Shown here piece by piece: positions 9,069 to 43,079 of a stretch of 43,079 nucleotides of DNA (the stretch's first letter is position 1; every line of letters begins with the position of its first letter). The DNA comes from a virus. Its lineage: Duplodnaviria; Caudoviricetes. The notes beneath the pieces are model-generated. The model was not told the origin of the DNA and searched no databases. It saw only the letters and a list, made by a program, of their open reading frames with translations. The position numbers and the translations under genes were made by a program. The stretch spans positions 1 through 43,079 of the IMG/VR virus record IMGVR_UViG_3300043443_000068, one strand, 5' to 3'.

Positions 9069-9359
9069 TTATTTCTCCGTAGAACAAGCCATTAAAAGAA
9101 CACCTTCATGTTCTTTGATAGGCGTAAAGCCAAACATTGTTTCAAACTTAATTAGTTTCTTATCGTCAGATGGAATAAGAACAAATACTTCTGTGTAGCC
9201 ACGTTCCCGTAATTCTTCTATAGCTACATACCAAGTATTTATACACTTTAAATATACACGCTTATTCCACACATGTACTTTAGCATGTGCAAACACTTTG
9301 TTTTCGTAATATTGAAAAGTTAGACTTCCGTCTTCATCTTCCCAAAATACGTCATACAT
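9069..9359 (-). CDS. GNAT-like protein (T7 gp13 position)
   Basis: Start overlaps the tail gene stop; KLIKFETMFGF resembles a GNAT C-terminus; gene order. Confidence 0.55.
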   Translation of the reverse strand: MYDVFWEDEDGSLTFQYYENKVFAHAKVHVWNKRVYLKCINTWYVAIEELRERGYTEVFVLIPSDDKKLIKFETMFGFTPIKEHEGVLLMACSTEK

Positions 9360-13304: not shown

Positions 13305-13763
13305 TTAAAGGTAGCGAACTACGATGGTAGCGGTACCGGCAGTGAAAGTGCCAGTGAAAGCTACGTCTAGGGTGTCGGCAGCGGCGTAAACCTTGCCTAG
13401 ACCACGGTTGGTAGCAGCATCACCGATAGCGTAAGCACCAGCAGCGCGAACAGTGGCACCAGCAGTTAGGTTAGCAACAGCGCCTTGAGTAGCTGAAATC
13501 CAGCCATCAGGATCAGTGCCGTCACCTAGTTGCACGTCAGTACCACCGGCCCAAGCGGTACCAACCTTCATTACCACGTCTAGCACAACAGCGCCAGCGG
13601 GGATATCGATGGTAGCACCAGAGCTTTGATAGGTGATGGCTAGATGGGCTTCTTTAACAGCACCATCGTGATCATACACACCAGCAACGTTACGCTCGGG
13701 GATGTTAGCGCCAAAGCCTACAACTAGGCCGTCAGCGTTAGTCCATGAAGAAGCACGGGTCAT
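13305..13763 (-). CDS. capsid decoration / minor capsid protein
   Basis: Follows the major capsid gene; WTNADGLVVGFG and IPAGAVV motifs; high-expression codon pattern. Confidence 0.65.
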   Translation of the reverse strand: MTRASSWTNADGLVVGFGANIPERNVAGVYDHDGAVKEAHLAITYQSSGATIDIPAGAVVLDVVMKVGTAWAGGTDVQLGDGTDPDGWISATQGAVANLTAGATVRAAGAYAIGDAATNRGLGKVYAAADTLDVAFTGTFTAGTATIVVRYL

Positions 13764-13780
13764 TTTCTATTTCCTTTCAA

Positions 13781-14746
13781 TTAGATGGTGTTCTTGGTGA
13801 TAACAGACACCAGACACTCAGGACGATATAGCTTTAGACCGAAGCGGGCGTTCATCACGTACTCATCACGACGTAGGTCTTTGTTGCGCTCGTACTCTAC
13901 GCGGGGTAGCTGACGATAGGCACCAACGAAGGGGGTTAGGTCGCCACCAACAGACATGAATAGGTTCACGGTGGGGGTAGCAGGAACGGTAACACCGCCT
14001 AGGCTAGAACCAGCAGCTTCGGAAGCAGCAGGTAGGAAGTTGGAAACATAAACGTCGAAACCGAAGATGTTGCGGATGAAACGCATGCCGGTTACTTCGT
14101 TAACAAAGCCACCCTGAACAATACCCTCGAAAGCTGGGTTGTTGGTGAAAGCTTGTGCGCCAACTAGGGTGTTGAATACATATTCCTGTGAAGGATCAAT
14201 GATTGCAACACGGGTACCACCAGCTTGAGCCTTGTCTAGGGCATACTTAGCCTTAGCAAAGTCAGATAGTGCTAGGACGGTAGAAGAGCTACCAGAAGCA
14301 ACGAAACGATGGTCAGCACCGTTGATGGAGTTAGCGTTACCAGAGGTTTGCTGGTTGGCTAGAGAGAAAACAGAAGATTCTAGGTTCTCGTCTAGAGCAC
14401 GACGCATCTTGGTGGGAAACATGCCGATTAGCTGTTGAGCGTAGTAGCTGTCCTGCTTAGCCTTATCGGTAATGTAGGTAGCTGATTCGACATAACGGTC
14501 GATGGTGAAGTTGAATTCACCAGTGTCCATTGAGTCGTACACAACAGGGGTTAGTTCGGCAGTCTCGCGCATTGGTAGTTCACCAACGGAAGGGATGGTA
14601 AACTGGTTGCCATCGGGGAAGCCGTTGAGCATACGCACGTAGCGAGTGCCCATGAGTTGTTCTTGAAGAACATCTTTTAGTTCAGCAGACCATAGTTCAG
14701 CACGAACTAGGTTTGCATCAACTTTTGCAAAATCTACACCAGCCAT
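13781..14746 (-). CDS. major capsid protein
   Basis: 321 aa after the scaffold; ELWSAEL, IPSVG and FGFDVYVSN motifs of P22/T7-type coats; AAGGAG RBS. Confidence 0.9.
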   Translation of the reverse strand: MAGVDFAKVDANLVRAELWSAELKDVLQEQLMGTRYVRMLNGFPDGNQFTIPSVGELPMRETAELTPVVYDSMDTGEFNFTIDRYVESATYITDKAKQDSYYAQQLIGMFPTKMRRALDENLESSVFSLANQQTSGNANSINGADHRFVASGSSSTVLALSDFAKAKYALDKAQAGGTRVAIIDPSQEYVFNTLVGAQAFTNNPAFEGIVQGGFVNEVTGMRFIRNIFGFDVYVSNFLPAASEAAGSSLGGVTVPATPTVNLFMSVGGDLTPFVGAYRQLPRVEYERNKDLRRDEYVMNARFGLKLYRPECLVSVITKNTI

Positions 14747-26646: not shown

Positions 26647-26930
26647 AAATAATTACTGTCGTAAATTGTGAGAACTTTAGTATTATACTACTTTATTACT
26701 ATATATACTACTAATATACTATATATAATACTATATACTTATATATATATACTACTTAGTTAATATATAGTAGATATATAACCCATTATCTATTTATATT
26801 ACCCCCAGCTATATATTATATTAGTTATTTATATAATTATATGTTTATTTATATATAGTTATATGTATACTGAGTAAGTTAGTGAGTACTTGCTAACATT
26901 ACTAGGAACATTCTGTAGATATATTCTATA
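26647..26930. other. extremely AT-rich low-complexity tract (putative genome end/origin region)
   Basis: TATA/TACTA arrays between the divergent arms; no ORF. Confidence 0.6.
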
Positions 26931-27382: not shown

Positions 27383-27889
27383 ATGTACGCAGCCGATCTT
27401 CGCCACGCCCTGCAACTTGCCAAAGATGGCAAAGACATTAGCCGGGAGGCTGGAACTGGAATCTGGGCCAACTATGTCCGGGCAACTTGCTACCCGATTC
27501 AACCCCGAAACGTGGAAGAATTGGACCGGGAGCATAAACGGGTAGTGGCAGAGTTGGAATCCATCAAGGAACTATCCAAAGATGAAAAGAATAGTCTCCG
27601 CTCCGCTAAGTCAGTCATCGGCAAGGCCGTTACTAATAACGTCGATGTCTGGAAGCGTAAGGATGACGGGTCTATCGAGACTGACGAAAAGGAAAATCCT
27701 ACCCCCAAAGGTAAGAGTGAGTTGCAGGAAGCTAAGTCCGACTTTGAGCGTATGATGGCATACATTGAAGCAGCGCAGAAAAAGTGGGACAGCGAGACTC
27801 GCGAATCGTTCACCACTGAGGAACTGGATCGCCTGTGGGGTGCCATTGCGGTGCTCGCTGACAACGTGAACGGTGCCCGTGGTAACTAA
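27383..27889 (+). CDS. first early protein, unknown function
   Basis: AAGGAAAC RBS downstream of the early promoters. Confidence 0.8.
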   Translation: MYAADLRHALQLAKDGKDISREAGTGIWANYVRATCYPIQPRNVEELDREHKRVVAELESIKELSKDEKNSLRSAKSVIGKAVTNNVDVWKRKDDGSIETDEKENPTPKGKSELQEAKSDFERMMAYIEAAQKKWDSETRESFTTEELDRLWGAIAVLADNVNGARGN

Positions 27890-27897
27890 CTAAGGAG

Positions 27898-27920
27898 CAG
27901 GGGCAAAAGCCCCTGTTACT
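27898..27920 (+). terminator. hairpin / weak terminator
   Basis: CAGGGGC-AAAA-GCCCCTG followed by TTACT; poor U-tract. Confidence 0.45.
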
Positions 27921-27926
27921 AATAAC

Positions 27927-28049
27927 ATGCTGTACAAAATCCCGAAACGTAAGCCTCGGATGTCTGAGGAAGACAAACTAATAATTGTTTTCGGATGCTT
28001 CCTGATGGTTATGAAGCTTGCCCTTGCTGTTGTCCTTACCGGAGGTTAA
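27927..28049 (+). CDS. 40 aa membrane microprotein
   Basis: MLYKIPKRKPRMSEEDKLIIVFGCFLMVMKLALAVVLTGG. Confidence 0.5.
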   Translation: MLYKIPKRKPRMSEEDKLIIVFGCFLMVMKLALAVVLTGG

Positions 28050-28051
28050 TC

Positions 28052-28129
28052 ATGGCTAAATCTAATGCTGGTGTGTTCTACTGTGTATTGTTTATAATTG
28101 TAACCATCGTCGGTTATCTCATCAAATAA
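28052..28129 (+). CDS. 25 aa TM peptide
   Basis: GGAGG RBS; MAKSNAGVFYCVLFIIVTIVGYLIK. Confidence 0.55.
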   Translation: MAKSNAGVFYCVLFIIVTIVGYLIK

Positions 28130-28138
28130 GGGGCTAAC

Positions 28139-28464: not shown

Positions 28465-28465
28465 T

Positions 28466-28865: not shown

Positions 28866-30575
28866 ATGACTACCTACCTTGACGTAAAACAATTCGAGAC
28901 TTACGTAGCAGCATGTGCCCGCAATTCTGGTGTGTCGGTGTCGTGGGATACGTCCGACAGTGTGCCTCGCACTGATGGCAAACAGATGTGGCTACCTGCC
29001 ATTACTAGTAGCAGCACCGACGAGTGGCTAGCCCGCATGCGCTACTTTGTAAAGCACGAGACAAGCCACATCGTGCAGAGTGACTTCGACTATCTCAATG
29101 AGCAGGCACCTACCGGTCTACTGGCCCTCCTGAACAATCTAATTGAGGACCACCGCATTGACTACCGTAACGATGCGGAGTATGTGGGTGACAGGAAAAT
29201 TAGTAACGACTTCTGGACAATCCATGCCAAAGACATCACTAGTCGGTTGTCTGGCAAGGACAAAGAACTACAGGAACAACAGTTACTAGTATTGCCTGTG
29301 TTCGCATGGGATGCTGCCAATCGTGATTGGATTTACAGTAGTGCAGAATCCGTAGCGCAGATGCTTCCCTTGCTGGATGCGGAAGGACGCGAGCGTTACA
29401 AAAAGCTGCAAGCCTACACTGACGAGCTACTGGATGTGCGTGAGCACGGCGGTGCTGTAGAAGTTATGGAGCTTGCCAAGAAAATCCTCCGTGACTTGTA
29501 CGACGAAGACCCAGAGAAGTACTTGGACAAAGACAAGAGCAAAGGTAAAGGCAAGGGTGAGGGTGAGGGAGATGCTGACGACGGCAAGGGTGAGACGGTG
29601 TGTGATGACGTAGACCGACTCATTGAAGTTGACAAGCTGGTGGCATCTATGGGTCACGAGCACAAGCCTAGCCGTACTGGTATCCATCTTAAGCATGTAG
29701 AAAAGGGTAGTGGTGTCTATGCAATTCCTACCCCTGATGAGTACTACATCCTAGGGTTTGACAAGCCTGTGCCTGCGGTTATGCGTGAAGCTATTTCCAC
29801 ACATCCGTACTTCAATAGTGGGGAAGTACAAAGCTACATTACTAATAACGCTAAGCCGCTGTCCAACAAGCTACGCATCAAGCTTCAGACACGCAGCCGT
29901 GACCGGTATGAGTACGGTAAGAAGCGTGGTAAGCTGCACAATGGTAGTCTACATCGTGTGTTGCAGAAAGATAGCCCGATGGCAGAACGTGTGTTCCGTC
30001 AGCGTGTTACTAGTGACACACTTGACACTGCGGTATGCTTGCTGGTTGACTGTAGCGGTAGCATGTCAGGTAGCAAGTTTGAGATGGCATGTGCTGGTGC
30101 TGGCGCACTAGCTGAGGCACTCAAGCCCCTGAATATCTCCTACAGTGTTTACGGGTTTACTAACCTTGCATTTGACAGACTGGATAATCCTGTGGTATGG
30201 TTGTTCTCTGAGTTTGGAGAACGTGTGTCGCAGCCTGATCTAGTCAAGCGATTCAAGGTAGCATCCGGTGCGCTGTGGGACAATAGCGACGGTGATGCCA
30301 TTGCCTACGCATCCTATCGTCTGAGCCAACGCAAGGAACATCGCAAGGTACTCATTGTGCTGTCAGATGGTAGTCCTGCGGGTCGTGAGCGTGCTGGTGA
30401 TGTCACTGGCTACACGCACAAAGCTGTCCTAGATGCTGAGAATATGGGGATTGACACCTATGGTATTGGTATTCGTGATAATAATGTGCGTAATTTTTAT
30501 AAAAAGCACGTAGTTGTAGATCAACTAGACAAGCTTTCTCCTACCATTCTTTCAATTGTAGATCGGAGTATTTAA
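28866..30575 (+). CDS. CobT-like VWA-domain protein
   Basis: N-terminal HETSH; MIDAS DCSGSMSG; VLSDGSP. Confidence 0.85.
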   Translation: MTTYLDVKQFETYVAACARNSGVSVSWDTSDSVPRTDGKQMWLPAITSSSTDEWLARMRYFVKHETSHIVQSDFDYLNEQAPTGLLALLNNLIEDHRIDYRNDAEYVGDRKISNDFWTIHAKDITSRLSGKDKELQEQQLLVLPVFAWDAANRDWIYSSAESVAQMLPLLDAEGRERYKKLQAYTDELLDVREHGGAVEVMELAKKILRDLYDEDPEKYLDKDKSKGKGKGEGEGDADDGKGETVCDDVDRLIEVDKLVASMGHEHKPSRTGIHLKHVEKGSGVYAIPTPDEYYILGFDKPVPAVMREAISTHPYFNSGEVQSYITNNAKPLSNKLRIKLQTRSRDRYEYGKKRGKLHNGSLHRVLQKDSPMAERVFRQRVTSDTLDTAVCLLVDCSGSMSGSKFEMACAGAGALAEALKPLNISYSVYGFTNLAFDRLDNPVVWLFSEFGERVSQPDLVKRFKVASGALWDNSDGDAIAYASYRLSQRKEHRKVLIVLSDGSPAGRERAGDVTGYTHKAVLDAENMGIDTYGIGIRDNNVRNFYKKHVVVDQLDKLSPTILSIVDRSI

Positions 30576-30576
30576 C

Positions 30577-31620
30577 ATGAGCAGCCCTGACCTGAACGAC
30601 CGCGTAGCTAAAGCCATTGCAGAACACCTCGGCAAGGCACCAAAGACCGCAGCCCCCAAAGAACCCAAGCCTGCAGCTAAGGAACCTGTGGGTCTGAAGC
30701 CCGGTCAAGTTTGGTTCTCATCTGTGTTCGACTATCGTCCCAAGTTTGGCGACTTCGGAATCACTGCACCTGAGCCTGTCGTTAACCCAGAGGTTGCACG
30801 CCTGATCCCTTCTATTGATCCTGACTATGTTGTGCAGCGTGATGAAGCTGCATTACTAGTAGCGGGTATCGAGGATGGTGACAAGTCCCTGATCACTGGC
30901 CCTACTGGTAGCGGTAAGTCATCTCTGGTTAAGTATGTGTGTGCTAAGCTTAACCGCCCATTCATTCGCATTAACATGTCGGGTGACGTAGAGAGTGCAT
31001 CTCTGTTCGGTACGCTAGTTGTGCGTGGTGGTGCTACCGAGTGGGAAGATGGTGCCATCACTGAAGCAGCTAAGTACGGTGCTGTGTGTCTAGTTGACGA
31101 GTGGGAGCTTATGCCCGCAGAGATTGCCATGGGTATGCAGAACCTGTTGGAAGACGGTGGCTATCTCTATCTCAAGGAGAAGCCCGGTACTAGTGATGAT
31201 CGTACGATTGTCCCGCACAAGGACTTCCGTCTGGTGTTTGCTGGTAACACTGTGGGCCAGGGTGACACGACGGGTGCGTTCTCTGGTGTCGGTATCCAGA
31301 ACAGCGCAACTATCGACCGCTTCACCAACACTGTGCGTCTGGGCTACCTTAGCCAACAGCACGAGATTGACATCATTACTAGTAAGACCGACGTTGACAA
31401 AGACGTAGCTACTAAGATGGTGCGGTTTGCACACCTTGTGCGACAGGCATACGACAGTGGTAAGATTGGCCTCACTGTGTCACCACGTACCCTGATCAAT
31501 TGGGGTCGCAAGATGACTCGCTACGAGGCACAGTATGCCCTGCAAGTTAGCTTCCTTGAGAAGCTGACTCCTGACGACAGCAAGAGTGTGTCGGAGTTGT
31601 ACGTCAAAGTGTTTGGCTAA
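30577..31620 (+). CDS. CobS/MoxR-like AAA+ ATPase
   Basis: GPTGSGKS, CLVDE, FRLVFAGN, DRF, SPRTL. Confidence 0.9.
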   Translation: MSSPDLNDRVAKAIAEHLGKAPKTAAPKEPKPAAKEPVGLKPGQVWFSSVFDYRPKFGDFGITAPEPVVNPEVARLIPSIDPDYVVQRDEAALLVAGIEDGDKSLITGPTGSGKSSLVKYVCAKLNRPFIRINMSGDVESASLFGTLVVRGGATEWEDGAITEAAKYGAVCLVDEWELMPAEIAMGMQNLLEDGGYLYLKEKPGTSDDRTIVPHKDFRLVFAGNTVGQGDTTGAFSGVGIQNSATIDRFTNTVRLGYLSQQHEIDIITSKTDVDKDVATKMVRFAHLVRQAYDSGKIGLTVSPRTLINWGRKMTRYEAQYALQVSFLEKLTPDDSKSVSELYVKVFG

Positions 31621-31922
31621 TGTGCCACCAACACATCAGCGCGTTTGTATATGACAAGAGGGGGCGATTGCTTTCCTCTGGTCAGAACAGCTACGTGAAG
31701 ACACACCCGCTACAAGCACGTATTGCTGCGGAGGTAGGGGAACCCCACAAGGTTTTCCTGCATGCAGAGGTTGCAGCACTGGTTAAATGTGATTGGAACA
31801 AGGCACACCGAATACTAGTAACGCGCTATAACAAACAAGGCAAGCCCTTGCTGGCAAAGCCGTGCAAGGTCTGTCATCAAATTATTCGCATGACTAACAT
31901 CAAGATTGTGGAGCACACATGA
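31620..31922 (+). CDS. stand-alone Zn-dependent deaminase (CDA/TadA superfamily)
   Basis: LHAE and KPCKVC motifs; TAATG-coupled to the ATPase. Confidence 0.85.
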   Translation: MCHQHISAFVYDKRGRLLSSGQNSYVKTHPLQARIAAEVGEPHKVFLHAEVAALVKCDWNKAHRILVTRYNKQGKPLLAKPCKVCHQIIRMTNIKIVEHT

Positions 31923-32251: not shown

Positions 32252-32827
32252 ATGAGCATCGAAGTGATGAAGCAGGCGCTTGAGGCGCTGGAGAAGTCGG
32301 TTTCGACCTGTTTCGACAGGTATTCCCACGAGCAGGTGCTGAGCCGCCCAGAGCATTTTATCAATCAGACCATTACCGCCCTGCGCCTCGCCATTGAGCA
32401 GGCCGAGCGAGTTAAACGCGCAGAGGAAGCCTTTGCTGCAGCCAGCGATGAGATGAAAGGCGAGCAGGCCGAGCGGCAGGAGCTAGTGTGTGAATACTGC
32501 GGAGGCGACCGATTTATCGCCCCGCCCCAGCAACCCGAAGCCCTGCGGCTGGCTGATGAGATTGGCGAGGACTACTGCCGCTGCCTGCCTGCATACAAGG
32601 ATAGAGGCCGAACTGATCCGCAGTGCGAGTCCTGCAACACGGAAGACTGGCGACACGAGGCCGCCGCCGAACTGCGCCGCCTGCACAGCGTGAACGAGAA
32701 ACTGCTGGAGGCGCTGCACAGCATTAGCCTTGCATCCCAAGACTCAGGCAGCACCCGAGAAGGTATGGGCTTATACGCCCGCGCCGCAATCGCCGCCGCC
32801 ATCCGCGCAAGAAAGGAACTAAAATGA
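32252..32827 (+). CDS. hypothetical protein, GC-rich insert
   Basis: MSIEVMKQALEALE...AAAELRRLH...AAAIRAR; visibly higher GC. Confidence 0.7.
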   Translation: MSIEVMKQALEALEKSVSTCFDRYSHEQVLSRPEHFINQTITALRLAIEQAERVKRAEEAFAAASDEMKGEQAERQELVCEYCGGDRFIAPPQQPEALRLADEIGEDYCRCLPAYKDRGRTDPQCESCNTEDWRHEAAAELRRLHSVNEKLLEALHSISLASQDSGSTREGMGLYARAAIAAAIRARKELK

Positions 32828-33002: not shown

Positions 33003-33836
33003 ATGACTACACTGTACGGACGCGAAGCTTTAGATGTGTTACTAGTAAGCACTCCCGACTTTGAACGCATTCTTGACGGTAAGCAGGAGAAATACAACCA
33101 CGTCGATTGTCCTGCCGGTGATGACACTAAGCAGCGTCTGTACGTTAAGCATGTTGATGGTGCCATCCTATTCCACTGCCACCACTGCGACACCAGTGGA
33201 TACTATCGCCCACGTGAGAGGTACTCTTCAATCGCTGACGCAGAGAACCGCATACCCCACACTGACGATGCCCGCGCTGCTCGTGCGTATGAAACGATAG
33301 GGGAGGAAGACTACAACAAGTTCCGTATTGAGGGGCAGCTTTGGCTTGGTCAGTATGGGTTTGACGCACAGATGTGCTGTGACTATGGCATCAAAGAGTT
33401 TGACAATGGGCTTGTATTACCTGTTTATTTCAGGGACATTCTTGGCCTTACAGGAGTTGATGGTTATCAAGTTAGACGCTATAATGGTGTTCCTAAGTAT
33501 TCCACGTACACACAAAGAACATACAGCTATCTCTACGCTGGCCCATCAATGAGGCCGCTAGTCATCACGGAGGACTTGCTAAGCAGCTACAAAATGCATG
33601 CTGCAGGATTCTCTACGCTATGCCTTCTGGGTACTTCAATGCCACCAGAGGTTTGTTCGTGGATTGCGAGAGACTATCCTAGGCAAGTGTTATGGCTAGA
33701 CGACGACAAAGGTGGGCACCATGGGGCACTTAAAATTATCAAGGAGTTCAGTGTGCTCATGCCAGAACTAACCGCCATCTTTCATAAACAACCAAAAGAA
33801 ATTGACATGGATGAGTTAAAACAATTGGAGCTTTAA
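33003..33836 (+). CDS. DNA primase (Zn finger + TOPRIM)
   Basis: HVDC...CHHC; VITED; LLGT; WLDDD. Confidence 0.85.
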   Translation: MTTLYGREALDVLLVSTPDFERILDGKQEKYNHVDCPAGDDTKQRLYVKHVDGAILFHCHHCDTSGYYRPRERYSSIADAENRIPHTDDARAARAYETIGEEDYNKFRIEGQLWLGQYGFDAQMCCDYGIKEFDNGLVLPVYFRDILGLTGVDGYQVRRYNGVPKYSTYTQRTYSYLYAGPSMRPLVITEDLLSSYKMHAAGFSTLCLLGTSMPPEVCSWIARDYPRQVLWLDDDKGGHHGALKIIKEFSVLMPELTAIFHKQPKEIDMDELKQLEL

Positions 33837-35098
33837 TGAGTTACGACATTGATTTGCTAGCAGTTACTAGTAACAAGACAACATACGAGAGGTTCAAAGA
33901 TCATGTAAAGAAACACAACGTATCCTCCATCACACTAGAGTTGTTCAACGCTATGGGTGAGTATTGGGAGAGCTACCCACTGCGCACAGACGTGGATGTC
34001 GCAGAGTTCAAGACATTCTTCTTCATTGTCAAGGGCAAGAAGATCAAAGATCCTTCTAAGTATGAATTAGCATTCGACAACTACGAGAAGGCACTGGAGC
34101 TAGAGAAACCGATTGTCAAGGACATTCTAGCCAAGCTGATTGAAACCGATTACGCTACACAGGTGTACGATGTGTGTGTTAAGATCGGTACAGGTCGTGG
34201 TGGTGATCTGCTCTCTGTAGAAGAGATGCTCAACAACTACAAGAAAGAAATTGGTGCCACCATAGAGAAGAGTGAGGTGTTCGTTAGCCCTAGCCTAGAC
34301 TACCTGTCTAGCACAGTGGCTAGTGGAGGTCTTACATGGCGATTGAAAGAGCTTAACGTAGCGTTAGGTCCGATTCGTAAGGGCGACTTCATCATCATTG
34401 CTGCACGGCCTGAGACAGGTAAGACAACGTTTGTTGCTAGCGAAGCTAGTCATATGATGTCGCAGCTACAGCCTGACGAGCATGTGATTTGGATCAACAA
34501 CGAGGAAGCCAGTAACAAGGTAATGATGCGTGTAATTCAGGCAGCATATCAAGTTACTAGTAGCGAACTGCTCAGCGATCCCAAGATGTACGAGCTAGGA
34601 TTCCTAGCACAGGGCGGTGATAGGTTTCTGATTCTTGATGACGACAGCAACATCAAGTCAGCTAACAAAATCTCTGCACTGTTCAAGGAGTTCAAGCCCG
34701 GACTCATCATCTTTGATCAGCTAGACAAGGTGCACGGGTTCCAGAATGACAGGGAAGACCTGCGCATCGGTAAGCTGTACGAGTGGGCACGAGACGTAGC
34801 TAAGGAATATTGCCCGGTCATTGCTGTCAGTCAGGTTGACGGCACTGGTGAGGGTGAGAAGTGGATTCAGATGAATCAGCTACGAGGTAGTAAGACAGAT
34901 AAGGTTGGTGAGGCAGATGCCATCATCACAATTGGTAAGAGTAACGAGCCGGGGATGGACTTACAGCGGTACATTCATGTGCCTAAGAACAAACTGTTCG
35001 GAGGCAAGGATACGCTAGAAGCACATCGTCACGGGTGTTTTGAAGTTGATATTGAACCAGCGAGGGCACGATATGTCAGCAAGTGGAAAGTCCGTTAA
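33836..35098 (+). CDS. DnaB-like replicative helicase
   Basis: ARPETGKT, NEE, IIFDQL, VSQ, GEAD, KNK. Confidence 0.9.
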   Translation: MSYDIDLLAVTSNKTTYERFKDHVKKHNVSSITLELFNAMGEYWESYPLRTDVDVAEFKTFFFIVKGKKIKDPSKYELAFDNYEKALELEKPIVKDILAKLIETDYATQVYDVCVKIGTGRGGDLLSVEEMLNNYKKEIGATIEKSEVFVSPSLDYLSSTVASGGLTWRLKELNVALGPIRKGDFIIIAARPETGKTTFVASEASHMMSQLQPDEHVIWINNEEASNKVMMRVIQAAYQVTSSELLSDPKMYELGFLAQGGDRFLILDDDSNIKSANKISALFKEFKPGLIIFDQLDKVHGFQNDREDLRIGKLYEWARDVAKEYCPVIAVSQVDGTGEGEKWIQMNQLRGSKTDKVGEADAIITIGKSNEPGMDLQRYIHVPKNKLFGGKDTLEAHRHGCFEVDIEPARARYVSKWKVR

Positions 35099-35321
35099 GA
35101 ACGGCGATGTCTACATGGATGATGACGGGTATATGCGAGTTCTACTATCTAATACGTCGGATGTGTGGTTTACATATTTGGTACCAACAGAAAGCAAGTT
35201 TGCGTGGGTAAGTGAGCCTAGAGCAAAGGCATTCATTCCTGACGAAAGCAAGTACGTGATGAACATAAAGGACATGCTAGTCAGTGTGCGAGAGGAGTTG
35301 CTGAGTGAACCTAGTAATTGA
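35073..35321 (+). CDS. hypothetical protein
   Basis: Bridges helicase and polymerase genes. Confidence 0.55.
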   Translation: MSASGKSVKNGDVYMDDDGYMRVLLSNTSDVWFTYLVPTESKFAWVSEPRAKAFIPDESKYVMNIKDMLVSVREELLSEPSN

Positions 35322-37215
35322 CCTAGAGACAACCATGCGGTGCCCTGTTGGAAACAACGCGGCTAATCCTATGTGGCCCGCCAATAAGGCAGTGGCATAC
35401 GGAGCTATGTGGTTAGACACAGAGTTAGAAACCTATGCACATGCTTATGCAAAAGAGGGTTTAGATCTAGACGTACTGCGAGAAGCGTGTGATAGGGCTA
35501 GCATTGTGGTGGGTCACAACGTCAAGTTCGACTTGCTGTACGTCTACCGCAATACTAGTGACAAGCTTCCCCGTATCTGGGATACGCAGCTAGCCGCCTA
35601 CATTCTCAGTGCACAACAGCATCTGTACGCTAGCCTAGACGACTTGACGCTACAGTATATTGGGGCACATGCACTGAAGGATGACAAGATCAAAGCCTAC
35701 TGGAAAGCTGGTGTACGCACTGAAGACATTCCAAAGGGTGAGCTACTGTCCTACCTAGAAGGTGATGTACGTAACACTACAGCCATTTTCAAAGAGCAGT
35801 GGGACGAGTGTGAGAAGCTAGACTTGCTACCTCTGATGCTCACACAGATGGATGCACTACGTGCCACCATTGAGATGAATCGTAACGGTATGCGGGTTGA
35901 CTGGCACTACGTAGATCTACAGCGCAAGGCATACAGTCAGGTGCTGAAGGCAGCTAGGGAAGATGCAGAGGAACTAGCGCCCGGTGTAGACACTGCTAGT
36001 CCTAAACAACTGTCCCTCTACTTCTTTGGTGGAGAGGAAAAATATAAGGAGAAAGAACAAGATGGCTTTTATAAGAACGGTAATCCACGCTTTAAAACTG
36101 TGGAAAAGATTCGTAAGATCGAAGGTAAATACCCACCTCCGGGGGAGCTAGGTAAGGGTGGCTATTACAGCACTGACGATAGTGTGCTGCGCGAACTAGC
36201 ATACAATCGTGCTGACCGTCTTGCCGAAACATTACTAATAATCCGTGAGTCTAGCAAGATCAAGGAGACATACTACGACGGCCTGAATAGTCTGCGGTTT
36301 CTAGATGACAACATCTATCCTAATCTCAATCACTGTTCAACCAAGACAGGACGGCTATCCTCCACTAACCCCAACCTACAGAACCAGACAGACGCAGGTG
36401 ACGTGAAGCGTTCCTACGTTAGTCGCTACGGAGACAATGGTCGCATCCTAGAGCTAGACTATTCGCAGCTAGAGATGGTTGCACTGGCCTACCTAGCAGA
36501 TGACAAGCAACTTATCGACGACATCAACAATGGGCGAGACATGCACCGAGAGCTGTACAAAGGCATGTATGGTGTGTATCCCACTGACAAAGAGCGCAAG
36601 CCATTCAAGCGGTTTAGCTTTCTGCTGGTGTATGGTGGTGGAGTTGCTACGTTGATGGCACAGAGTGGTTGCGACAAAGCCACTGCAAAGAAGTTCATCA
36701 ACACGTTCTACACACGCTACAAAGGAGTGAAGGAGTACCATGAGCGAATCGTAAAGGAAGCTGAAGCTAAGGCAGTGGTTAGCTACTTAGCCGACAAGAC
36801 TGGCCCCGAATATCACTACTACCATGCTAGTCCCACTGGTAGGCACTACATCTTCAAGAAGTATCCTAACGAATACAAGGGTGGGCTATCGTTCAGTCCT
36901 ACCGAGTTGAAGAACTGGCCCATTCAAGGCTTTGCCACTGGCGACGTTGTACCTATGATGGTGGGTCTACTTCTCAACAACCTAGAGAAGGAAGGCTTGC
37001 ATGAGGAAGCGAAACTAGTAATGACTGTGCACGACAGCGTAGTGCTTGACGTACCAGAAAAACTACTATACAATGTAGCTTCAGTTGCAAAAGATACTTT
37101 AGAGGCTGCTCCGTCATATCTAAAGGCTATCTTCAATATTGACTTCCCATGCAAACTAAGCGTAGGCGTGGAAGCAGGAATTAACTGGCAAGACAAAGAG
37201 GAAATTAAACTATGA
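35305..37215 (+). CDS. polA: family A DNA polymerase with 3'-5' exonuclease domain
   Basis: DLET, GHNVKFD, TGRLSS.NPNLQN, DYSQLE, RxxxKxxxFxxxYG, NWPIQG, VHDS. Confidence 0.95.
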   Translation: MNLVIDLETTMRCPVGNNAANPMWPANKAVAYGAMWLDTELETYAHAYAKEGLDLDVLREACDRASIVVGHNVKFDLLYVYRNTSDKLPRIWDTQLAAYILSAQQHLYASLDDLTLQYIGAHALKDDKIKAYWKAGVRTEDIPKGELLSYLEGDVRNTTAIFKEQWDECEKLDLLPLMLTQMDALRATIEMNRNGMRVDWHYVDLQRKAYSQVLKAAREDAEELAPGVDTASPKQLSLYFFGGEEKYKEKEQDGFYKNGNPRFKTVEKIRKIEGKYPPPGELGKGGYYSTDDSVLRELAYNRADRLAETLLIIRESSKIKETYYDGLNSLRFLDDNIYPNLNHCSTKTGRLSSTNPNLQNQTDAGDVKRSYVSRYGDNGRILELDYSQLEMVALAYLADDKQLIDDINNGRDMHRELYKGMYGVYPTDKERKPFKRFSFLLVYGGGVATLMAQSGCDKATAKKFINTFYTRYKGVKEYHERIVKEAEAKAVVSYLADKTGPEYHYYHASPTGRHYIFKKYPNEYKGGLSFSPTELKNWPIQGFATGDVVPMMVGLLLNNLEKEGLHEEAKLVMTVHDSVVLDVPEKLLYNVASVAKDTLEAAPSYLKAIFNIDFPCKLSVGVEAGINWQDKEEIKL

Positions 37216-37433
37216 CAGGCGAACTAGAAGATGCGTCAGACGCATTTTGTTGTGGTGATGTTACCTTTTTGAAGGGCGGTTACGAAAACCAATTCTCATT
37301 GAGGCGATTGTTTGAGTACAAAGAAAAAAAATACGAAGTAAAAGCAACTAAATTGCTTGAAGAAATAGAAGAACACCCACCAATGTATATTTGGCATGGT
37401 GGTTACGAAACATTTGAAATTAAAGGAATCTAA
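37212..37433 (+). CDS. hypothetical protein
   Basis: GAGG RBS, ATGA overlap. Confidence 0.6.
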   Translation: MTGELEDASDAFCCGDVTFLKGGYENQFSLRRLFEYKEKKYEVKATKLLEEIEEHPPMYIWHGGYETFEIKGI

Positions 37434-37943
37434 ATGAGCTATATCATCGAGAACATCACCCAGAAAGAAGTCAACACCAAGTTCGGCCCTAAGCCAGCAT
37501 TCACTGTGCATGCTAACGGTGATCGGTTTAGCTACGGCTTCAAGAAGCCAACCTTCAAGATTGGCGACACCGTAGACTTCCAATATACCGAGAACACCTA
37601 CGGCAAGAACGTCGATCTAGCAAGCGTTCGTCTACTCAGCAAGGGGGAGGGTGCACCTGCTATCTCCGGTGTTGTTGTAGGCGGTTCTAGCCCTGGTCCT
37701 AAGGCTTATAGCAACCCTGCTAAGGTGTTCCCAATTCCCCCGCTACATGGTGATCGTGCCATTGTGCGTCAGAATTCAATCACCAATGCTGTGAAAGCTG
37801 TGTCTGATATTCTCGACAGCGATGGTATGCATATCGAACTGTACGTAGACACCATCATTTCAGTTGCCCGTAAGTTTGAAGCCTACTCCTGTGGCGATCT
37901 TGACGCAGCACAAGCTGAAGAGATGGTTTCTAAAGAGGCATAA
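37434..37943 (+). CDS. probable ssDNA-binding protein (OB-fold-like)
   Basis: Aromatic beta-rich N-terminal domain, IVRQN motif; lies between polymerase and nuclease. Confidence 0.5.
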   Translation: MSYIIENITQKEVNTKFGPKPAFTVHANGDRFSYGFKKPTFKIGDTVDFQYTENTYGKNVDLASVRLLSKGEGAPAISGVVVGGSSPGPKAYSNPAKVFPIPPLHGDRAIVRQNSITNAVKAVSDILDSDGMHIELYVDTIISVARKFEAYSCGDLDAAQAEEMVSKEA

Positions 37944-38770
37944 TGAAGACAATCGACACCCTAGTAAGCGACGTTTACAAGTTCATCAGTGGTGAGGTTC
38001 CCGCAGCCACTACGAACAACAATGTAAGTGTCAGCTACGACAAGTGGCTTAGCCCACGGTCTTCTGTTCGGGAGAAGAACATTCTGTACTTCAGCGAAGT
38101 AGGTGATCCCTGCCCACGACGCCTGTGGTACAAATACAACTCTCCTGAAATTGCAGAGAAGCATGACGGCAACACCCTGCTCAAGTTCTTCTATGGCGAC
38201 ATTCTGGAAGAGCTAGTGCTCAACGTTGCAGAGGATGCTGGTCACAGTGTTACTAGTAAGCAAGAGCGTGTGCTGTATGACGTTGGTAATGGCTGGTATA
38301 TTCGTGGTCGCATTGACGCAATCATTGACGGCGTAGTTGTGGATGTGAAGAGCACCACCAAGTACGGCGAAGAGAAGTTCAAGAACAACCTACGAGAGGA
38401 CCCATTCGGCTACTACCAACAACTAAACGGATATGCTTCTACTCTTAACCATGATAATGCTGGCTTTGTTACTATTCAGAAAGAGCTAGGGCATATCAAC
38501 TACTACCCCATCGAGGTAAACAAAGCGCTGTTCAAGCTGCAAGCTGACCATGCTGTAGAGTCTGTATCACAGGCTACCCCTGACAGCATTCCACGGCTAG
38601 ACCCTGTTCCAGCTAGTAAGACCAGTAAGAATAGTAAGCTGTGTACATCGTGTAGCTATTGCACCTACAAGAAACAATGCTGGCCTGAGATGCGTACATT
38701 CTTGTATGCTAGCGGTCCAGAGTTTCTAGTGAATGTTGTGGATGTTCCACGAGTTCAGGAGATTGTATGA
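37943..38770 (+). CDS. Cas4-like PD-(D/E)XK exonuclease
   Basis: CPRRLWY; GRID...DVKS; QLNGY; CSYC.....C. Confidence 0.85.
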   Translation: MKTIDTLVSDVYKFISGEVPAATTNNNVSVSYDKWLSPRSSVREKNILYFSEVGDPCPRRLWYKYNSPEIAEKHDGNTLLKFFYGDILEELVLNVAEDAGHSVTSKQERVLYDVGNGWYIRGRIDAIIDGVVVDVKSTTKYGEEKFKNNLREDPFGYYQQLNGYASTLNHDNAGFVTIQKELGHINYYPIEVNKALFKLQADHAVESVSQATPDSIPRLDPVPASKTSKNSKLCTSCSYCTYKKQCWPEMRTFLYASGPEFLVNVVDVPRVQEIV

Positions 38771-38976
38771 GAGTAATTAAAGAAGGGTACGTTCTGTATC
38801 ACATCGCAGGCAAGAATTATGTCTGCATGCAAAACACACAGACACCTAAAGTATATGCGTCCAAAAAGAAAGCTATTGAAAGTGCAGGTTATCGTAATGT
38901 AGATAACGATCCACAATTTAAAGTTGAGAAAGTATTTCTAGTAACAGGAGAAGATGATGACAACCAAGCAATTTGA
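38767..38976 (+). CDS. hypothetical protein
   Basis: AGGAG RBS. Confidence 0.6.
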   Translation: MRVIKEGYVLYHIAGKNYVCMQNTQTPKVYASKKKAIESAGYRNVDNDPQFKVEKVFLVTGEDDDNQAI

Positions 38977-39247
38977 ATTTTCATACTCAACCAACGAAGA
39001 TCCTGACGAGGTTACATTCGACGACATTGAGTATCCCCATCACAAACGCATTGACCACCGGGTGTATTTCACCGACAACACTCGCTGGCCTGACGTACTA
39101 CGAGAGTTTGCAAAGTTCCTAGATGCTACCGGCTATGTAGGTGTGTACGAGCGCATTGAGAAATTCATTGATGAGAACGATGCTCCACTACGTAAATATC
39201 TAGAGGAAGACGATGAAGATACTAGTAATCCCGGATTGTCAGATTAA
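38954..39247 (+). CDS. hypothetical acidic protein
   Basis: AGGAG RBS. Confidence 0.65.
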   Translation: MMTTKQFEFSYSTNEDPDEVTFDDIEYPHHKRIDHRVYFTDNTRWPDVLREFAKFLDATGYVGVYERIEKFIDENDAPLRKYLEEDDEDTSNPGLSD

Positions 39248-40001
39248 AGATGGCGTTCCTACTGATCATCTCGATTGGGCTGGTCGCGCTATTGCTGATT
39301 ACCGTCCTGACGTTGTGGTTAACATGGGCGACTTTGCAGACATGCCAAGCCTCTCTACTCACGATGTTAGAGGAAGTAAGTACTTTGAAGGACTACGATA
39401 CAAGAAAGATGTAGAGGTAACCAAAACAGCAATGCAGAAGCTTCTGGCACCTCTCCGCGAACTTCAAGACAAACAGAAGAAGAACAAGGAGAAGGTGTAC
39501 AAGCCCCGCATGATTATGCTTCTTGGTAACCACGAAAACCGCATTGATCGAGCCATCAACAACAACCCTACACTAGAGGGTTTAATCTCAACTAAGGATT
39601 TATGTTATGAACGAGATTGGGAAGTACACGCATTCCTTCACCCTGTTTTTATCAATGGTGTTGGTTTCAACCATTATTGGCCTGTTGGAGCTATGGGTAG
39701 GCCCGCAGGTACTGCTGCCGCTATTATTAGTAAGCTCCATATGTCTTGCATTGCTGGCCATCAGCAAGGAAAGCAAGTAGCGTACGGTAAGAGGGCAGAC
39801 GGACAACCCATCTGCGCCATCATTGCTGGCAGTTATTATCTTCACGACGAGAGTTACATGGACCAACTATCCAACAAACACTGGCGAGGTCTTGTGATGC
39901 TCAACGAAGTTAATGACGGTCACTTTGATGAGATGTTTCTATCCATTGAATATTTAGGTAAGCGGTATGGTAAACTACAGCAGACGACTACGGAGGGTTA
40001 A
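39213..40001 (+). CDS. calcineurin-like metallophosphoesterase
   Basis: IPDCQ, GDFAD, LGNHE, HY, GHQQ. Confidence 0.85.
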   Translation: MKILVIPDCQIKDGVPTDHLDWAGRAIADYRPDVVVNMGDFADMPSLSTHDVRGSKYFEGLRYKKDVEVTKTAMQKLLAPLRELQDKQKKNKEKVYKPRMIMLLGNHENRIDRAINNNPTLEGLISTKDLCYERDWEVHAFLHPVFINGVGFNHYWPVGAMGRPAGTAAAIISKLHMSCIAGHQQGKQVAYGKRADGQPICAIIAGSYYLHDESYMDQLSNKHWRGLVMLNEVNDGHFDEMFLSIEYLGKRYGKLQQTTTEG

Positions 40002-40221
40002 GCAGTTTATCGAGGAAAACTTTGACGACCCTGTAGAGCTAACCATTGCTCTCGGGTTGTCAGTAGAAGACATTGTTAATCTGCTTCCTGACGTACTGGT
40101 GGACAACTACGATAAATTCTTTGACGACGATGACAACACTGAAGAACACACGGGTAAAACTGAGCCGGACAACACTAGATCAGGAGAAGATTGGGAAGAC
40201 CCGGAAACGAGAGATTATTAA
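39967..40221 (+). CDS. hypothetical acidic protein
   Basis: DPVELTIALGLSVEDIV. Confidence 0.6.
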   Translation: MVNYSRRLRRVKQFIEENFDDPVELTIALGLSVEDIVNLLPDVLVDNYDKFFDDDDNTEEHTGKTEPDNTRSGEDWEDPETRDY

Positions 40222-40262
40222 TAATGTGCAGGAACGTGATTGGGAAACGGAGTTAAAAGATT

Positions 40263-40910
40263 ATGAGCGAGGTCAACTTAGTATGGACGACCCCGGATGG
40301 GGAGAAGCAGATAGCTTACATGGCGCGGGTGTCAAATCCTGATAACCAAGACAACCCTGAGTCAGCCAAGCTTCTTAAATATCTAGTGCGTAACAAACAC
40401 TGGAGTCCATTTGAGATGGTGAATGTCTGTATGGAAATCACCACGACACGAGACATTGCACGGCAGATCCTGCGTCACCGTAGCTTCAGCTTTCAGGAGT
40501 TCAGCCAGCGTTATGCAGAGGCAAGCGACTTTGAGATGAGCGAGGTTCGACGACAAGACACTGTTAATCGACAGAACAGCATTGATGTCAACCCTGCAAC
40601 GTCCGATACAGATCGACAACTAGCCTACTGGTGGCAAGGTATTCAGAGTAAAATCCTGAATGACGTAGAGTTTCTGTACAAGAGTGCGTTAGATAAAGGC
40701 ATTGCCAAAGAGGTTGCCCGTAAGATACTACCTGAAGGCATGACTGTTTCTAAGATGTATATGAACGGTACGCTACGCAGTTGGATTCACTACGTAGAGC
40801 TACGCACAGAAGCAGGTACACAGAAGGAACATCGTCAAGTTGCTTTACAATGTAAGGATGTTCTGGTACAATGTTACCCTTTCTTGGAGGAACTATGGCA
40901 GCGTGGTTAA
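40263..40910 (+). CDS. thyX: flavin-dependent thymidylate synthase
   Basis: HWSPFE; RHRSFSFQEFSQRY; GTLRSW; QKEH. Confidence 0.95.
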   Translation: MSEVNLVWTTPDGEKQIAYMARVSNPDNQDNPESAKLLKYLVRNKHWSPFEMVNVCMEITTTRDIARQILRHRSFSFQEFSQRYAEASDFEMSEVRRQDTVNRQNSIDVNPATSDTDRQLAYWWQGIQSKILNDVEFLYKSALDKGIAKEVARKILPEGMTVSKMYMNGTLRSWIHYVELRTEAGTQKEHRQVALQCKDVLVQCYPFLEELWQRG

Positions 40911-41041
40911 TTGCACTTATCGGTGTAGTATACTTGGTAGTGGCAATCAACCTGCTGCTTACTAGTAAGATTGGCCTAGGCATTGCATTCATTGGGTACG
41001 CCCTAGGTAATGTGGGCCTGTACATGGAGGCATTAAAGTGA
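40895..41041 (+). CDS. 48 aa two-TM protein
   Basis: GGAGG RBS; WLIALIGVVYLVVA...GYALGNVGLY. Confidence 0.65.
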   Translation: MAAWLIALIGVVYLVVAINLLLTSKIGLGIAFIGYALGNVGLYMEALK

Positions 41042-41274
41042 TTAGCGAAGTAGATATTAATGACATGAAAGCACTGTATGACTTGGATAACAACACGTAT
41101 TTCAAACTTGCTCCTACAGATGTCGTGTCAGTTCCACCTGACAGTAACGAGTTTCACCTCTCAGGGGTGTATAAATTTCTGGGTCTTGATGGAATGTATA
41201 GCCGCTGTCTTGACGAAGCTGGGAATCTACATCACTTTGCAGCGTGGACTAACGTAATTCCGTGGAACGAGTGA
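41038..41274 (+). CDS. hypothetical protein
   Basis: GGAGG RBS, GTG start. Confidence 0.65.
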   Translation: MISEVDINDMKALYDLDNNTYFKLAPTDVVSVPPDSNEFHLSGVYKFLGLDGMYSRCLDEAGNLHHFAAWTNVIPWNE

Positions 41275-41798
41275 GGAACGACGGGGAGTGGACAGAGGGT
41301 CGCTATAGATCGTTCATTACTAGTACGCTACGTGGTGGGATGAGACGGTGGCCCCCTAAGTGGAAGGCACTGAAGAAGGCAGAGTTAGGTAGGAAAACAA
41401 ACAAGAAGACAGGCAAGCTAGCCATGCACTACCTGTGTGGCATGTGTAACGAAGAGCACACAGCCAAGGATGTACAGGTAGACCATATTCAGCCAGTAGT
41501 AGACCCTGCTACTGGTTTCGTTTCTTGGGACTTGTACATTGATCGTTTGTTTTGTGAGAAAGACAACCTGCAAGTATTGTGCACCAAGTGCCACAAACTA
41601 AAGACAAAGGAAGAGAATGAATCTACGAGAGTATCAAGAGCTAGCAACAAGGTTCGCACTACCGACAGCCCTAAACCGCGAGTATCTAAGCCTAGGGCTA
41701 GCAGCAGAAGCGGGGGAAGTAGCAAGCCTAGTAGCAAAAGCAGTACGAGACAGCGACGGGAACCTAAACCGAGAGTCGTTAAAAAAAGAGTTAGGTGA
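41262..41798 (+). CDS. HNH endonuclease
   Basis: CGMC...VDHIQP...NLQVLCTKCH.LKT. Confidence 0.85.
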   Translation: MERVRNDGEWTEGRYRSFITSTLRGGMRRWPPKWKALKKAELGRKTNKKTGKLAMHYLCGMCNEEHTAKDVQVDHIQPVVDPATGFVSWDLYIDRLFCEKDNLQVLCTKCHKLKTKEENESTRVSRASNKVRTTDSPKPRVSKPRASSRSGGSSKPSSKSSTRQRREPKPRVVKKRVR

Positions 41799-41931
41799 TG
41801 TGCTATGGTTCGTTGCTGTGCTAGGCCAACACTACAACATTGACATGCTAGACTTAGCTATGGGCAATATTAATAAACTACGCAGCCGTGCATCGCGTGG
41901 TGTTATTGGAGGAAGTGGAGATGACCGATAA
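41617..41931 (+). CDS. mazG: MazG-like nucleotide pyrophosphohydrolase
   Basis: LGLAAEAGEV; KELGDVLW; NINKL..R..RG.I.GSGD.R. Confidence 0.9.
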   Translation: MNLREYQELATRFALPTALNREYLSLGLAAEAGEVASLVAKAVRDSDGNLNRESLKKELGDVLWFVAVLGQHYNIDMLDLAMGNINKLRSRASRGVIGGSGDDR

Positions 41932-42109
41932 TACACAATCGGAAGAGTTCTGGGTACACCACGTAGTTAAGGATTTTGACTACATCGTTAGCAGTGGTAA
42001 GTATCCAGATTCAATTTATAACCTGCTGTCAGATAAGACAAAGACCAAGTTGTTCACACTTGCAGCAAACCAAATTTGTGAGGAGACAACCAATGGTAAT
42101 GGCTATTAG
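41921..42109 (+). CDS. hypothetical protein
   Basis: GGAGG upstream of ATG41921. Confidence 0.5.
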   Translation: MTDNTQSEEFWVHHVVKDFDYIVSSGKYPDSIYNLLSDKTKTKLFTLAANQICEETTNGNGY

Positions 42110-42227
42110 ACTAATGGCGGGCATTGCTTTAGGTTTTGACGTAAATCCTGCTCCGGGTGTTTACGTCAGCATTTACTTAGGCATTGTTGAACTTGCATTT
42201 TATAACCCAGAGGAAATTGAAGAATGA
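42093..42227 (+). CDS. 44 aa hypothetical protein
   Basis: AGGAG RBS. Confidence 0.5.
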   Translation: MVMAIRLMAGIALGFDVNPAPGVYVSIYLGIVELAFYNPEEIEE

Positions 42228-43079
42228 CACTTGGTACTTACGAAACTTTCATTGCGAAAAGCCGCTACTCACGATTCCTAGACGACAAGAATCGTCGAGA
42301 GCATTGGCCTGAAACTGTAGACCGCTACATGAACTTCATGAATCAGCAGCTACAGAAGAAGCATAACTACTCTATTCCACCATCCCTATACACGGAGCTA
42401 CATGCAGCCATCCTAAACTGCGAGGTGATGCCCTCCATGCGGGCTATGATGACTGCAGGTGATGCTCTGGAGCGAGACAACACTGCAGGTTACAACTGTT
42501 CCTACCTGCCTGTGGATGATGTTAAATCCTTCGACGAGGCTATGTATATCCTGCTGTGCGGCACGGGTGTCGGCTTCTCTGTAGAAAGCAAGTATGTCAA
42601 CAAACTACCTGAAGTACCTACGCAGCTATTTAATAGCGATACTACTATCGTTGTGTCTGACAGCAAAGCTGGTTGGGCCAAAGCCCTACGTCAGCTTATC
42701 GCCCTACTGTATTCCGGGGAAGTACCAAAATGGGACACCTCTAAAGTCCGTCCGGCAGGGGCACGCCTTAAAGTCTTTGGTGGTCGAGCTAGCGGCCCTA
42801 AACCCCTCATTTCACTCTTTGAATTTGTTACTAGTAAGTTTAAAGGTGCGGCGGGACGTAAACTTACCAGCCTGGAGTGCCATGACATTATGTGCAAGAT
42901 TGGCGAAGTCGTGGTTGTTGGTGGGGTACGTCGATCAGCGATGATTAGCCTCAGTGATTTGTCAGATGATCGGATGCGGCATGCAAAAGCAGGACAATGG
43001 TGGGAGCGAGAAGGACAACGAGCACTTGCAAACAACAGTGCATGCTATAATGACAAACCCACTGTTGGAGAGTTTATGT
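42224..43079 (+). CDS. nrdJ: class II (B12-dependent) ribonucleotide reductase, 3'-truncated by the window
   Basis: SRYSR, PSMRAMMTAG, YNCSY, GTGVGFSVE, GGRASGP, GGVRRSA, RALANNS; frame open to the window end, so absent from the ORF track. Confidence 0.9.
   Translation, partial: MTLGTYETFIAKSRYSRFLDDKNRREHWPETVDRYMNFMNQQLQKKHNYSIPPSLYTELHAAILNCEVMPSMRAMMTAGDALERDNTAGYNCSYLPVDDVKSFDEAMYILLCGTGVGFSVESKYVNKLPEVPTQLFNSDTTIVVSDSKAGWAKALRQLIALLYSGEVPKWDTSKVRPAGARLKVFGGRASGPKPLISLFEFVTSKFKGAAGRKLTSLECHDIMCKIGEVVVVGGVRRSAMISLSDLSDDRMRHAKAGQWWEREGQRALANNSACYNDKPTVGEFM

Follow-up and report, generated by a model that had tools for sequence, protein, structure and literature searches.

The window, by which the whole analysed virus record of 43,079 bp is meant, belongs to a podovirus related to the Zobellviridae, and the sequencing runs containing most of its sequence are freshwater metagenomes. 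According to the PHROG/Pfam annotation, it is organized into a structural arm on the minus strand (368-26336) and an early/replication arm on the plus strand (27383-43079), and the arms converge. As in the Zobellviridae, the two-arm genome falls within 40-55 kb and its capsid and packaging genes are related to those of named members, the major capsid protein sharing 44-46% identity with that of cobaviruses (Cobavirinae). Two converging arms, a size of ~45 kb, a family A polymerase, ThyX and RNR are common to the window and SIO1, ICBM1/2, CRP-4/5 and MEP402, as is the position of the capsid gene as the most codon-selected gene. Unlike the named Zobellviridae, however, the clade of the window is uncultured and of freshwater origin and displays a CTA/TTG dimorphism of its capsid genes at 93-95% protein identity, while the window itself carries a small deaminase gene that was not found in the Zobellviridae TC6 and VpV262.

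The ends of the window break inside the RNR and DUF3310 genes. Contig L085, which matches one end at 99.9% identity over 10,919 bp and the other at 100% over 412 bp, bridges them and closes a gap of 1,936 bp that contains the end of RNR, an ECF sigma factor gene, two small ORFs and DUF3310, giving a genome of 45,015 bp with the gap included. The ECF-type sigma factor gene (L085 11311-11856, minus strand), which lies after RNR inside the segment absent from the window, possibly encodes a late-transcription factor. Between the arms a very AT-rich tract of TATA repeats, which includes a 34-nt inverted repeat (26680-26870), is likely to represent a terminus or origin region; the relatives G002 and G005 are classed with terminal repeats.

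The major capsid protein gene (13781..14746, minus strand; phrog_267) has the strongest translational-selection signature in the genome, and 21 of its 25 leucine codons are CTA, with CTG used once. The gene after it (13305..13763, minus strand; CTA 7/8) has no PHROG or Pfam match and, judging from its position, likely encodes a decoration or minor capsid protein. The remainder of the late arm has a low GC3. On the plus strand, the first early gene (27383..27889; CTA 1/11, and 0-3 CTA codons in all 27 orthologues examined) has 203 homologues, with no family named among the 120 matches listed and no function given by the atlas. It is followed by a VWA/CobT-like gene (28866..30575; CTA 14, CTG 14 and TTG 8 of 52 Leu), a MoxR/CobS-like AAA ATPase gene (30577..31620; CTG 12 and CTA 3 of 27) and, adjoining the latter, a gene for a 100-residue protein with the Zn-dependent deaminase fold (31620..31922, plus strand; phrog_174, E 9e-11), which marks the codon step described below and is a candidate tRNA-Leu editor. 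Downstream of the deaminase gene lies a GC3-rich (0.69) gene (32252..32827, plus strand) that is patchy in relatives, is an exception to the step (CTG 11/17) and has likely been acquired recently. The replication block (33003..43079, plus strand) comprises primase, helicase, polymerase, exonuclease, ThyX, MazG and the 5' part of RNR and uses CTA for 109 of 283 leucines. Within it, MazG (41617..41931, plus strand; CTA 13/16) is generally A-ending (A3 0.43). An HNH ORF (41262-41798) with a basic S/R/K/P-rich tail overlaps MazG by 60 codons in another frame, an overlap preserved in L092; MazG was not found in the TTG-type genomes G001-G004 and G042.

A sequence-only reading of the window had proposed that leucine codons switch from CTG to CTA between early and late genes. 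The hand counts on which it was based, namely those of the capsid, decoration, MazG and MoxR genes and the single CTA of the first early gene, are exact, and the polymerase gene is CTA-rich as claimed (32/69). CTA accounts for 385 of 1034 leucine codons genome-wide (37%; 55 ORFs), the capsid gene being enriched over this mean (p=2e-6) and the capsid and decoration genes together (85% CTA) over other late genes (p=1e-7). The boundary, however, was misplaced: CTA is the top leucine codon in both arms, and its share in the plus arm (133/408, 33%) hardly differs from that of the late genes without capsid and decoration (224/593, 38%; p=0.09). MazG, taken for a late gene, sits in the replication arm, like the polymerase, and several tail genes are CTA-poor (e.g. 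9352-11556, 9/40). Furthermore, AAG-to-AAA (lnOR 1.32), GAG-to-GAA (1.13), GTG-to-GTA (1.09) and Gln (0.94) shift across the arms about as strongly as CTG-to-CTA (1.23), which therefore reflects a general A-ending drift at that level. Contrary to the sequence-only reading, such a drift does exist, all boxes shifting from G to A. Two contrasts are real: the capsid and decoration genes differ from all others, and the earliest genes (CTA 24/125) from the replication genes (109/283; p=1e-4). The earlier observation is therefore half right, with real counts, a wrong boundary and a partly general drift.

The second of these contrasts is conserved. In nearly all relatives, CTG and TTG prevail in the three earliest large genes, and the change to CTA takes place ahead of primase. 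In the window, the four genes up to the deaminase gene contain CTA 20, CTG 32 and TTG 15 of 98 Leu, compared with CTA 113, CTG 70 and TTG 32 of 310 in the later plus-arm genes. The odds ratio for leucine is 0.38 (p=0.001), with the other A/G boxes also shifting (OR 0.71, p=0.005). Across the CTA-leaning lineages, ln(CTA/CTG) rises by ~1 to 2.4 while the other A/G boxes move by 0 to 0.8; group 47283, which offers few codons and whose contigs were paired by name prefix, shows no step. When eight genomes were pooled, the in-frame CTA/CTG counts changed from 99/198 to 463/210, and the out-of-frame counts only weakly, from 265/325 to 513/481. What remains of the proposed temporal remodelling of leucine decoding is this Leu-biased step, located after the first three genes and not between the early and late arms; it is linked to one gene and has an independent cultured example and two exceptions.

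As to the first contrast, the capsid gene contains 119 favoured and no disfavoured codons, and the decoration gene 76 and none. Taken together, the two genes use AAC 24/0, TTC 17/6 and ATC 15/4 and lack AGR, GGR, CGR and ATA, which is the universal high-expression signature. From this pattern it follows that CTA is very likely the best-read leucine codon in the cell at the time these genes are translated. RNA contigs from two runs span the capsid operon, from which genes are not rankable. Within the late arm, the CTA share rises with the use of C-ending Phe/Tyr/Ile/Asn codons (rho 0.60, p=0.002, n=24).

An ordinary explanation for such a preference, a phage-encoded tRNA-Leu(UAG) that decodes CTA, can be given next to no credence. 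The sequence-only reading had seen no tRNA gene in the window, and ARAGORN and Rfam searches agree, finding none in the window, the closed gap, 56 related loci (L085 among them) or five of five near-complete relatives; the tRNA-free gap of L085 also removes the escape that the gene might lie in the missing segment. Such a tRNA does account for a distant carrier of the deaminase gene, Streptomyces phage Karimac (capsid CTA 15/27), which has its own Leu-TAG tRNA pattern and was, for this reason, set aside as uninformative about the deaminase.

Alternatively, the CTA excess could be made at the DNA level, by A/T drift, avoidance of CCWGG and CAGCTG and enrichment of CTAG and of the palindrome TACTAGTA, with module age giving the CTG of the early genes. 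The arm-wide G-to-A shift in all boxes speaks for such causes, as do the departures from synonymous shuffles: CCWGG occurs 14 times (51 expected), CAGCTG once (20 expected) and CTAG 248 times (202 expected), and GGWCC and TTCGAA are also avoided. This avoidance, with CCWGG down to 0-1 copies in the 41-46 kb relatives G001-G004, points to restriction or methylation by the host. Of the 33 leucines of the capsid and decoration genes, 10 are at positions where a CTG codon would form an avoided site; at the 23 unconstrained ones, however, CTA is still used 18 times. The TTG-type relatives avoid CCWGG even more, yet their capsids lack CTA, and the step is in-frame. The data do not support a DNA mutator that acts on CAG, as the CAG-to-TAG signal is absent in carriers of the deaminase gene (lnOR -0.20 vs -0.69 in non-carriers), and an effect on dNTP pools would not single out leucine. 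As a sole cause, DNA-level effects are improbable and largely refuted, although they contribute to the difference between the arms.

The product of the gene at the step carries the HxE and PCxxC motifs (HAE...PCxxC) of the Zn-dependent deaminase superfamily (PF00383 clan). Its PF00383 match is below the cut-off, while viral PF00383 clusters match at 0.96-0.97. Residues H48, E50, P81, C82 and C85 are invariant in 28 relatives, the NSYxKTH segment is likewise invariant, and the protein, with 76-100% conservation where MoxR shows 74-95%, is more conserved than its neighbours. The corresponding clusters are dominated by viruses, and the family occurs in up to 222 phage records. Among the features given in PMC3239186 for the dCMP deaminase/ComE clade are a bihelical insert with a second Zn site, NA two residues after HxE and NxxP ending strand 2; the phage protein reads HAEVAA and has no Cys between N23 and H48. 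The EPCxMC motif and two C-terminal helices that the same source describes for TadA/Tad2 are missing as well, since the protein reads KPCKVC and ends 15 residues past the motif. Matches of its profile to PDB entries are weak, with nucleoside and dCMP deaminases first (E 0.008-0.018), followed by tRNA deaminases (E 0.44-0.73), and a single-sequence PDB search gave chance matches only. With both motif lists failed and the PDB matches weak, any substrate is a prediction. What the phage protein shares with TadA/ADAT2, CDAT8 and the dCMP deaminases is the HxE/PCxxC Zn site and the weak profile matches; it differs in its size of 100 aa, in KPC instead of EPC and in lacking the C-terminal helices, the second Zn insert and the NA motif. 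TadA/ADAT2 convert A34 to I, and CDAT8 converts C8 to U. In locus L146, a shortened match to the deaminase gene (2198-2425; 76 codons aligned to residues 1-100) is possibly a decaying copy.

The size of the step varies with the presence of this gene. Among 39 distinct relatives spanning the MoxR-primase junction (rows with identical helicases collapsed), 26 are carriers and 13 non-carriers. The median CTA share of the replication genes is 0.30 (0.22-0.43) in the former and 0.19 (0.14-0.31) in the latter (p=1.9e-5), and the step, computed on rows with at least 40 early Leu, measures 0.92 (n=21) vs 0.21 (n=12; p=1.8e-5), whereas the earliest genes have a similar CTA share in both (0.17 and 0.18, p=0.25). 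Since the deaminase label changes five times on the helicase tree, four of the changes being forced by well-supported branches, there are only about five gains or losses, and these p-values overstate independence. The ranges also overlap, the non-carriers L174 (0.31) and L178 (0.28) running counter to a role of the deaminase. L151 and L190 end before the position of the gene, for which reason neither was by itself scored as lacking it. Regarding the capsid, CTA is the top or joint-top leucine codon in six of seven carrier records (21/25, 18/22, 14/25, 10/22, 15/22 and 6/21) and in none of six non-carriers, where TTG leads (CTA 0, 0, 0, 0 and 1 of 24; 3 of 21); this tally leaves out groups 5662, 47283, 47275 and 31758, in which different contigs had been paired by a shared name prefix. 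Five of the six non-carrier capsids form one clade, and the sixth is tied to a non-carrier contig only by a 2,553-bp stretch of 99.96% identity. Carrier G756, with an intact deaminase gene (57%), counts against the deaminase with a capsid of CTG 11 and CTA 0 of 24, yet shows the largest early-to-middle step. No other early ORF tracked the CTA type as well as the deaminase gene; MazG and 28139-28384 did so partly.

An independent example is provided by Xanthomonas phage DES1, which carries the deaminase gene (51%) and whose sole tRNA is a tRNA-Arg. Its capsid gene uses CTA 12 and CTG 2 times of 21, while AAG (10/11), CAG (11/13) and CCG (14/17) are kept, and CTA rises from 13/68 in the eight genes upstream of the deaminase gene to 74/202 in the eight downstream (p=2e-4 vs CTG+TTG). 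Its relative StenR_269 (capsid 58% identical) has no deaminase gene and uses CTG for 20 of 25 capsid leucines and CTA for none. The two capsids differ in leucine (p=2e-7) and show no difference in Lys/Gln/Pro (p=0.34). Xanthomonadaceae generally prefer CTG, with StenR_269 serving as their proxy here. Rollin and TC6, likewise without the gene, use CTG 20/27 and 21/27. Aeromonas phage 2L372X, however, is a carrier (45%) whose capsid has CTG 11 and CTA 1 of 19, which counts against the deaminase. These comparisons cover three of about seven named carrier groups, to which RaK2-like, phiKZ-like and cyanophage carriers also belong.

Taken together, the step co-varies with the deaminase gene, and the enzyme is predicted to edit the wobble base C34 of host tRNA-Leu(CAG) to U, making CTA the best-read leucine codon, an explanation to which we give somewhat less than an even chance. 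The deaminase would be expressed early, in a host that would itself prefer CTG/TTG. C34-to-U editing, with the substrate tRNA, the position and the leucine specificity all being predicted, would turn tRNA-Leu(CAG) into a tRNA with a UAG anticodon. Such an anticodon reads CTA and, by wobble, CTG. Genes expressed before the enzyme acts would retain the CTG/TTG of the host, and among the later genes those translated most, presumably with the capsid gene foremost, would move furthest to CTA. Superimposed on this are the general drift of the late arm towards A-ending codons and the avoidance of CCWGG-type sites. The conservation of the protein and of its catalytic residues speaks for editing, as does its lack of the second Zn insert and NA motif of dCMP deaminases. 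Further points argue against it: nucleoside and dCMP deaminases lead the PDB matches, the TadA motifs are absent, ThyX and RNR in the genome provide a reason for a dCMP deaminase, other A/G boxes shift at the step of the window as well, and the CTG-rich gene 32252-32827 lies just downstream of the deaminase gene.

A different reading, which deserves serious consideration although we would not call it probable, is that the host already prefers CTA in its highly expressed genes, that the capsid gene follows this preference, that the TTG-type relatives infect other hosts, and that a dCMP deaminase merely travels along with the lineages adapted to the host. It gains support from 12 named Zobellviridae, whose capsid leucine codon varies with the host: CTG takes 21/27 in P. 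aeruginosa phage TC6 and 11-18/24 in phages of enteric hosts, TTA occurs 10 times in the capsids of MEP402 and RIO-1, and VpV262 reaches CTA 12/22 without a deaminase gene. These would be the codons that the respective hosts prefer. The rise of late-arm CTA with the expression signature agrees with such a preference, too. It leaves unexplained, on the other hand, the difference between DES1 and StenR_269, the earliest genes being alike in carriers and non-carriers when the later genes differ, and the CTG of MoxR despite a fairly selected codon set (86 favoured vs 16 disfavoured codons).

The capsid genes themselves bear on both readings. Among 68 distinct capsid alleles, 30 are of the CTA type, 28 of the TTG type and 10 mixed. 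Alleles whose proteins are 94-95% identical to the window capsid have 0-1 CTA and 12-14 TTG of 24; the capsids of L012, L016, L022 and L023 share 94-95% protein but 79-81% DNA identity with 13781-14746, with 9-12 aligned CTA-to-TTG swaps. Different hosts would also account for further differences between CTA- and TTG-type capsids, in Gln (CAG 0.35/0.10), Lys (AAG 0.66/0.43) and Phe. In a quick tree built from 62 portal rows, however, CTA-, TTG- and mixed-type capsids are interleaved, with nine changes, 4-5 of them forced by supported branches, which speaks against a matter of host alone. Capsid identity is at odds with portal and polymerase identity, suggesting exchange of the capsid gene, and some of the changes on the portal tree are probably such exchanges.

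No host emerged from the searches. A scan of genome contigs gave three loci. An 83% match in an Aquiluna MAG was discarded, as it lies in an all-phage, TTG/CTC-type stretch of 42% GC (~54% in host genes) and is probably mis-binned. Neighbours of the endolysin gene gave no host clue, a class-wide draw of EF-Tu genes contained no clear Burkholderiales and no CTA-rich gene, and G062 turned out to be an order with a single genome. Against a CTA-preferring host, none of 194 sampled rpsA genes of presumed Burkholderiales groups is CTA-dominant, TTG- and CTG-dominant ones being common. The maximum CTA share is 14% in presumed Burkholderiales (n=95, extracted from 100 of 251 matches), 22% in the genus of G384 (n=29; by its inferred name Polynucleobacter) and 26% in the family of G425 (n=70; by its inferred name Methylophilaceae). 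Ranking hosts by codon likelihood proved panel-dependent, with the G384 genus and CTG-rich members of the G425 family fitting the non-Leu codons about equally (0.24-0.27); Pro usage mismatches both. CTA-preferring hosts do exist, since CTA-dominant EF-Tu genes were found among 78 loci selected for two CTA codons (up to 22/26 and 24/27, several at 60-90%). Among the genes compared, one of these (L443, 0.31) matches the codons of the capsid gene best overall. EF-Tu genes of the Aquiluna genus reach CTA 12/26.

The departure of phages from host codon usage is an old question, the usual answers being phage tRNAs or tRNA cleavage. An earlier study reportedly dealt with how structural genes of phages adapt their codons and with codon differences between early and late genes. 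Differences in synonymous codons between early and late genes were described for 50% of 14 phages (PMC5683454); the residual step seen here differs in being Leu-biased and in tracking one gene. In T4 infection, host tRNA-Leu(CAG) is cleaved. A similar cleavage of host tRNA-Leu(CAG/CAA), by a phage gene or a host anticodon nuclease, would leave tRNA-Leu(UAG) as the main decoder and predicts the same codon pattern as editing. Candidate hosts have both the CAG and TAG isoacceptors of tRNA-Leu (9 of 10 genomes), and several small early ORFs have no family; nevertheless, no nuclease was recognised among the early genes by PHROG/Pfam, and, as noted, no other early ORF follows the CTA type so closely, so that we consider cleavage unlikely. 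T4, which encodes its own tRNA-Leu(UAA) (PMC4810235), shares with the editing proposed here a move of leucine decoding away from CTG during infection; the window differs in having no phage tRNA and no recognised nuclease, in its target (CTA, not TTA) and in the proposed chemistry. For Syn9 in Synechococcus WH5701, the supply of LeuTAA is described as limiting phage translation (PMC11726456). There, phage translation is decided by the supply of one leucine isoacceptor, the cause being a host-side loss of tRNA expression rather than a phage enzyme. At the level of titles and abstracts, the literature yielded no description of a host anticodon being edited by a deaminase from a phage.

The presence of a single gene thus predicts a codon shift in a single amino acid, first among the uncultured phages of one clade and again in a pair of cultured ones, and editing would add a third route to the two usual ones. 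It is conceivable, though clearly short of probable, that these 100-residue deaminases, a family widespread among phages, rewrite an anticodon of the host and that gain or loss of their gene recodes the capsid between CTA and TTG/CTG. Were this true, host decoding would be retuned without a phage tRNA, capsid leucine usage would report on the enzyme, the annotated dCMP deaminases of up to 222 phage records would acquire a function as phage anticodon-editing enzymes, and codon-based host prediction could mislead. If it is false, the clade nevertheless offers a clear-cut example of CTA/TTG recoding of a capsid at 93-95% protein identity.

The palindrome TACTAGTA (consensus RTTACTAGTAAY) has 24 sites in the window, where ~1 is expected, in two reading frames (e.g. 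at 3240, 7406, 27278, 31377, 33040, 38251 and 42829); 22 copies lie in coding sequence, compared with 2.7 under synonymous shuffles. G001-G004 contain 31-40 copies, and G005, TC6 and MEP402 show no excess. The motif co-occurs with CCWGG avoidance and not with the CTA type, and it is likely bound by a protein on the phage DNA. In 261 genomes, RTTACTAGTAAY shows no enrichment (at most 4 copies) and hence gives no host clue, and no related paper on this 10-mer in phage was found. In L096, a 50.8 kb contig of a 45% capsid relative placed in a Pseudanabaena MAG, GATC occurs 0 times in the 21 kb examined, where 80 sites are expected.
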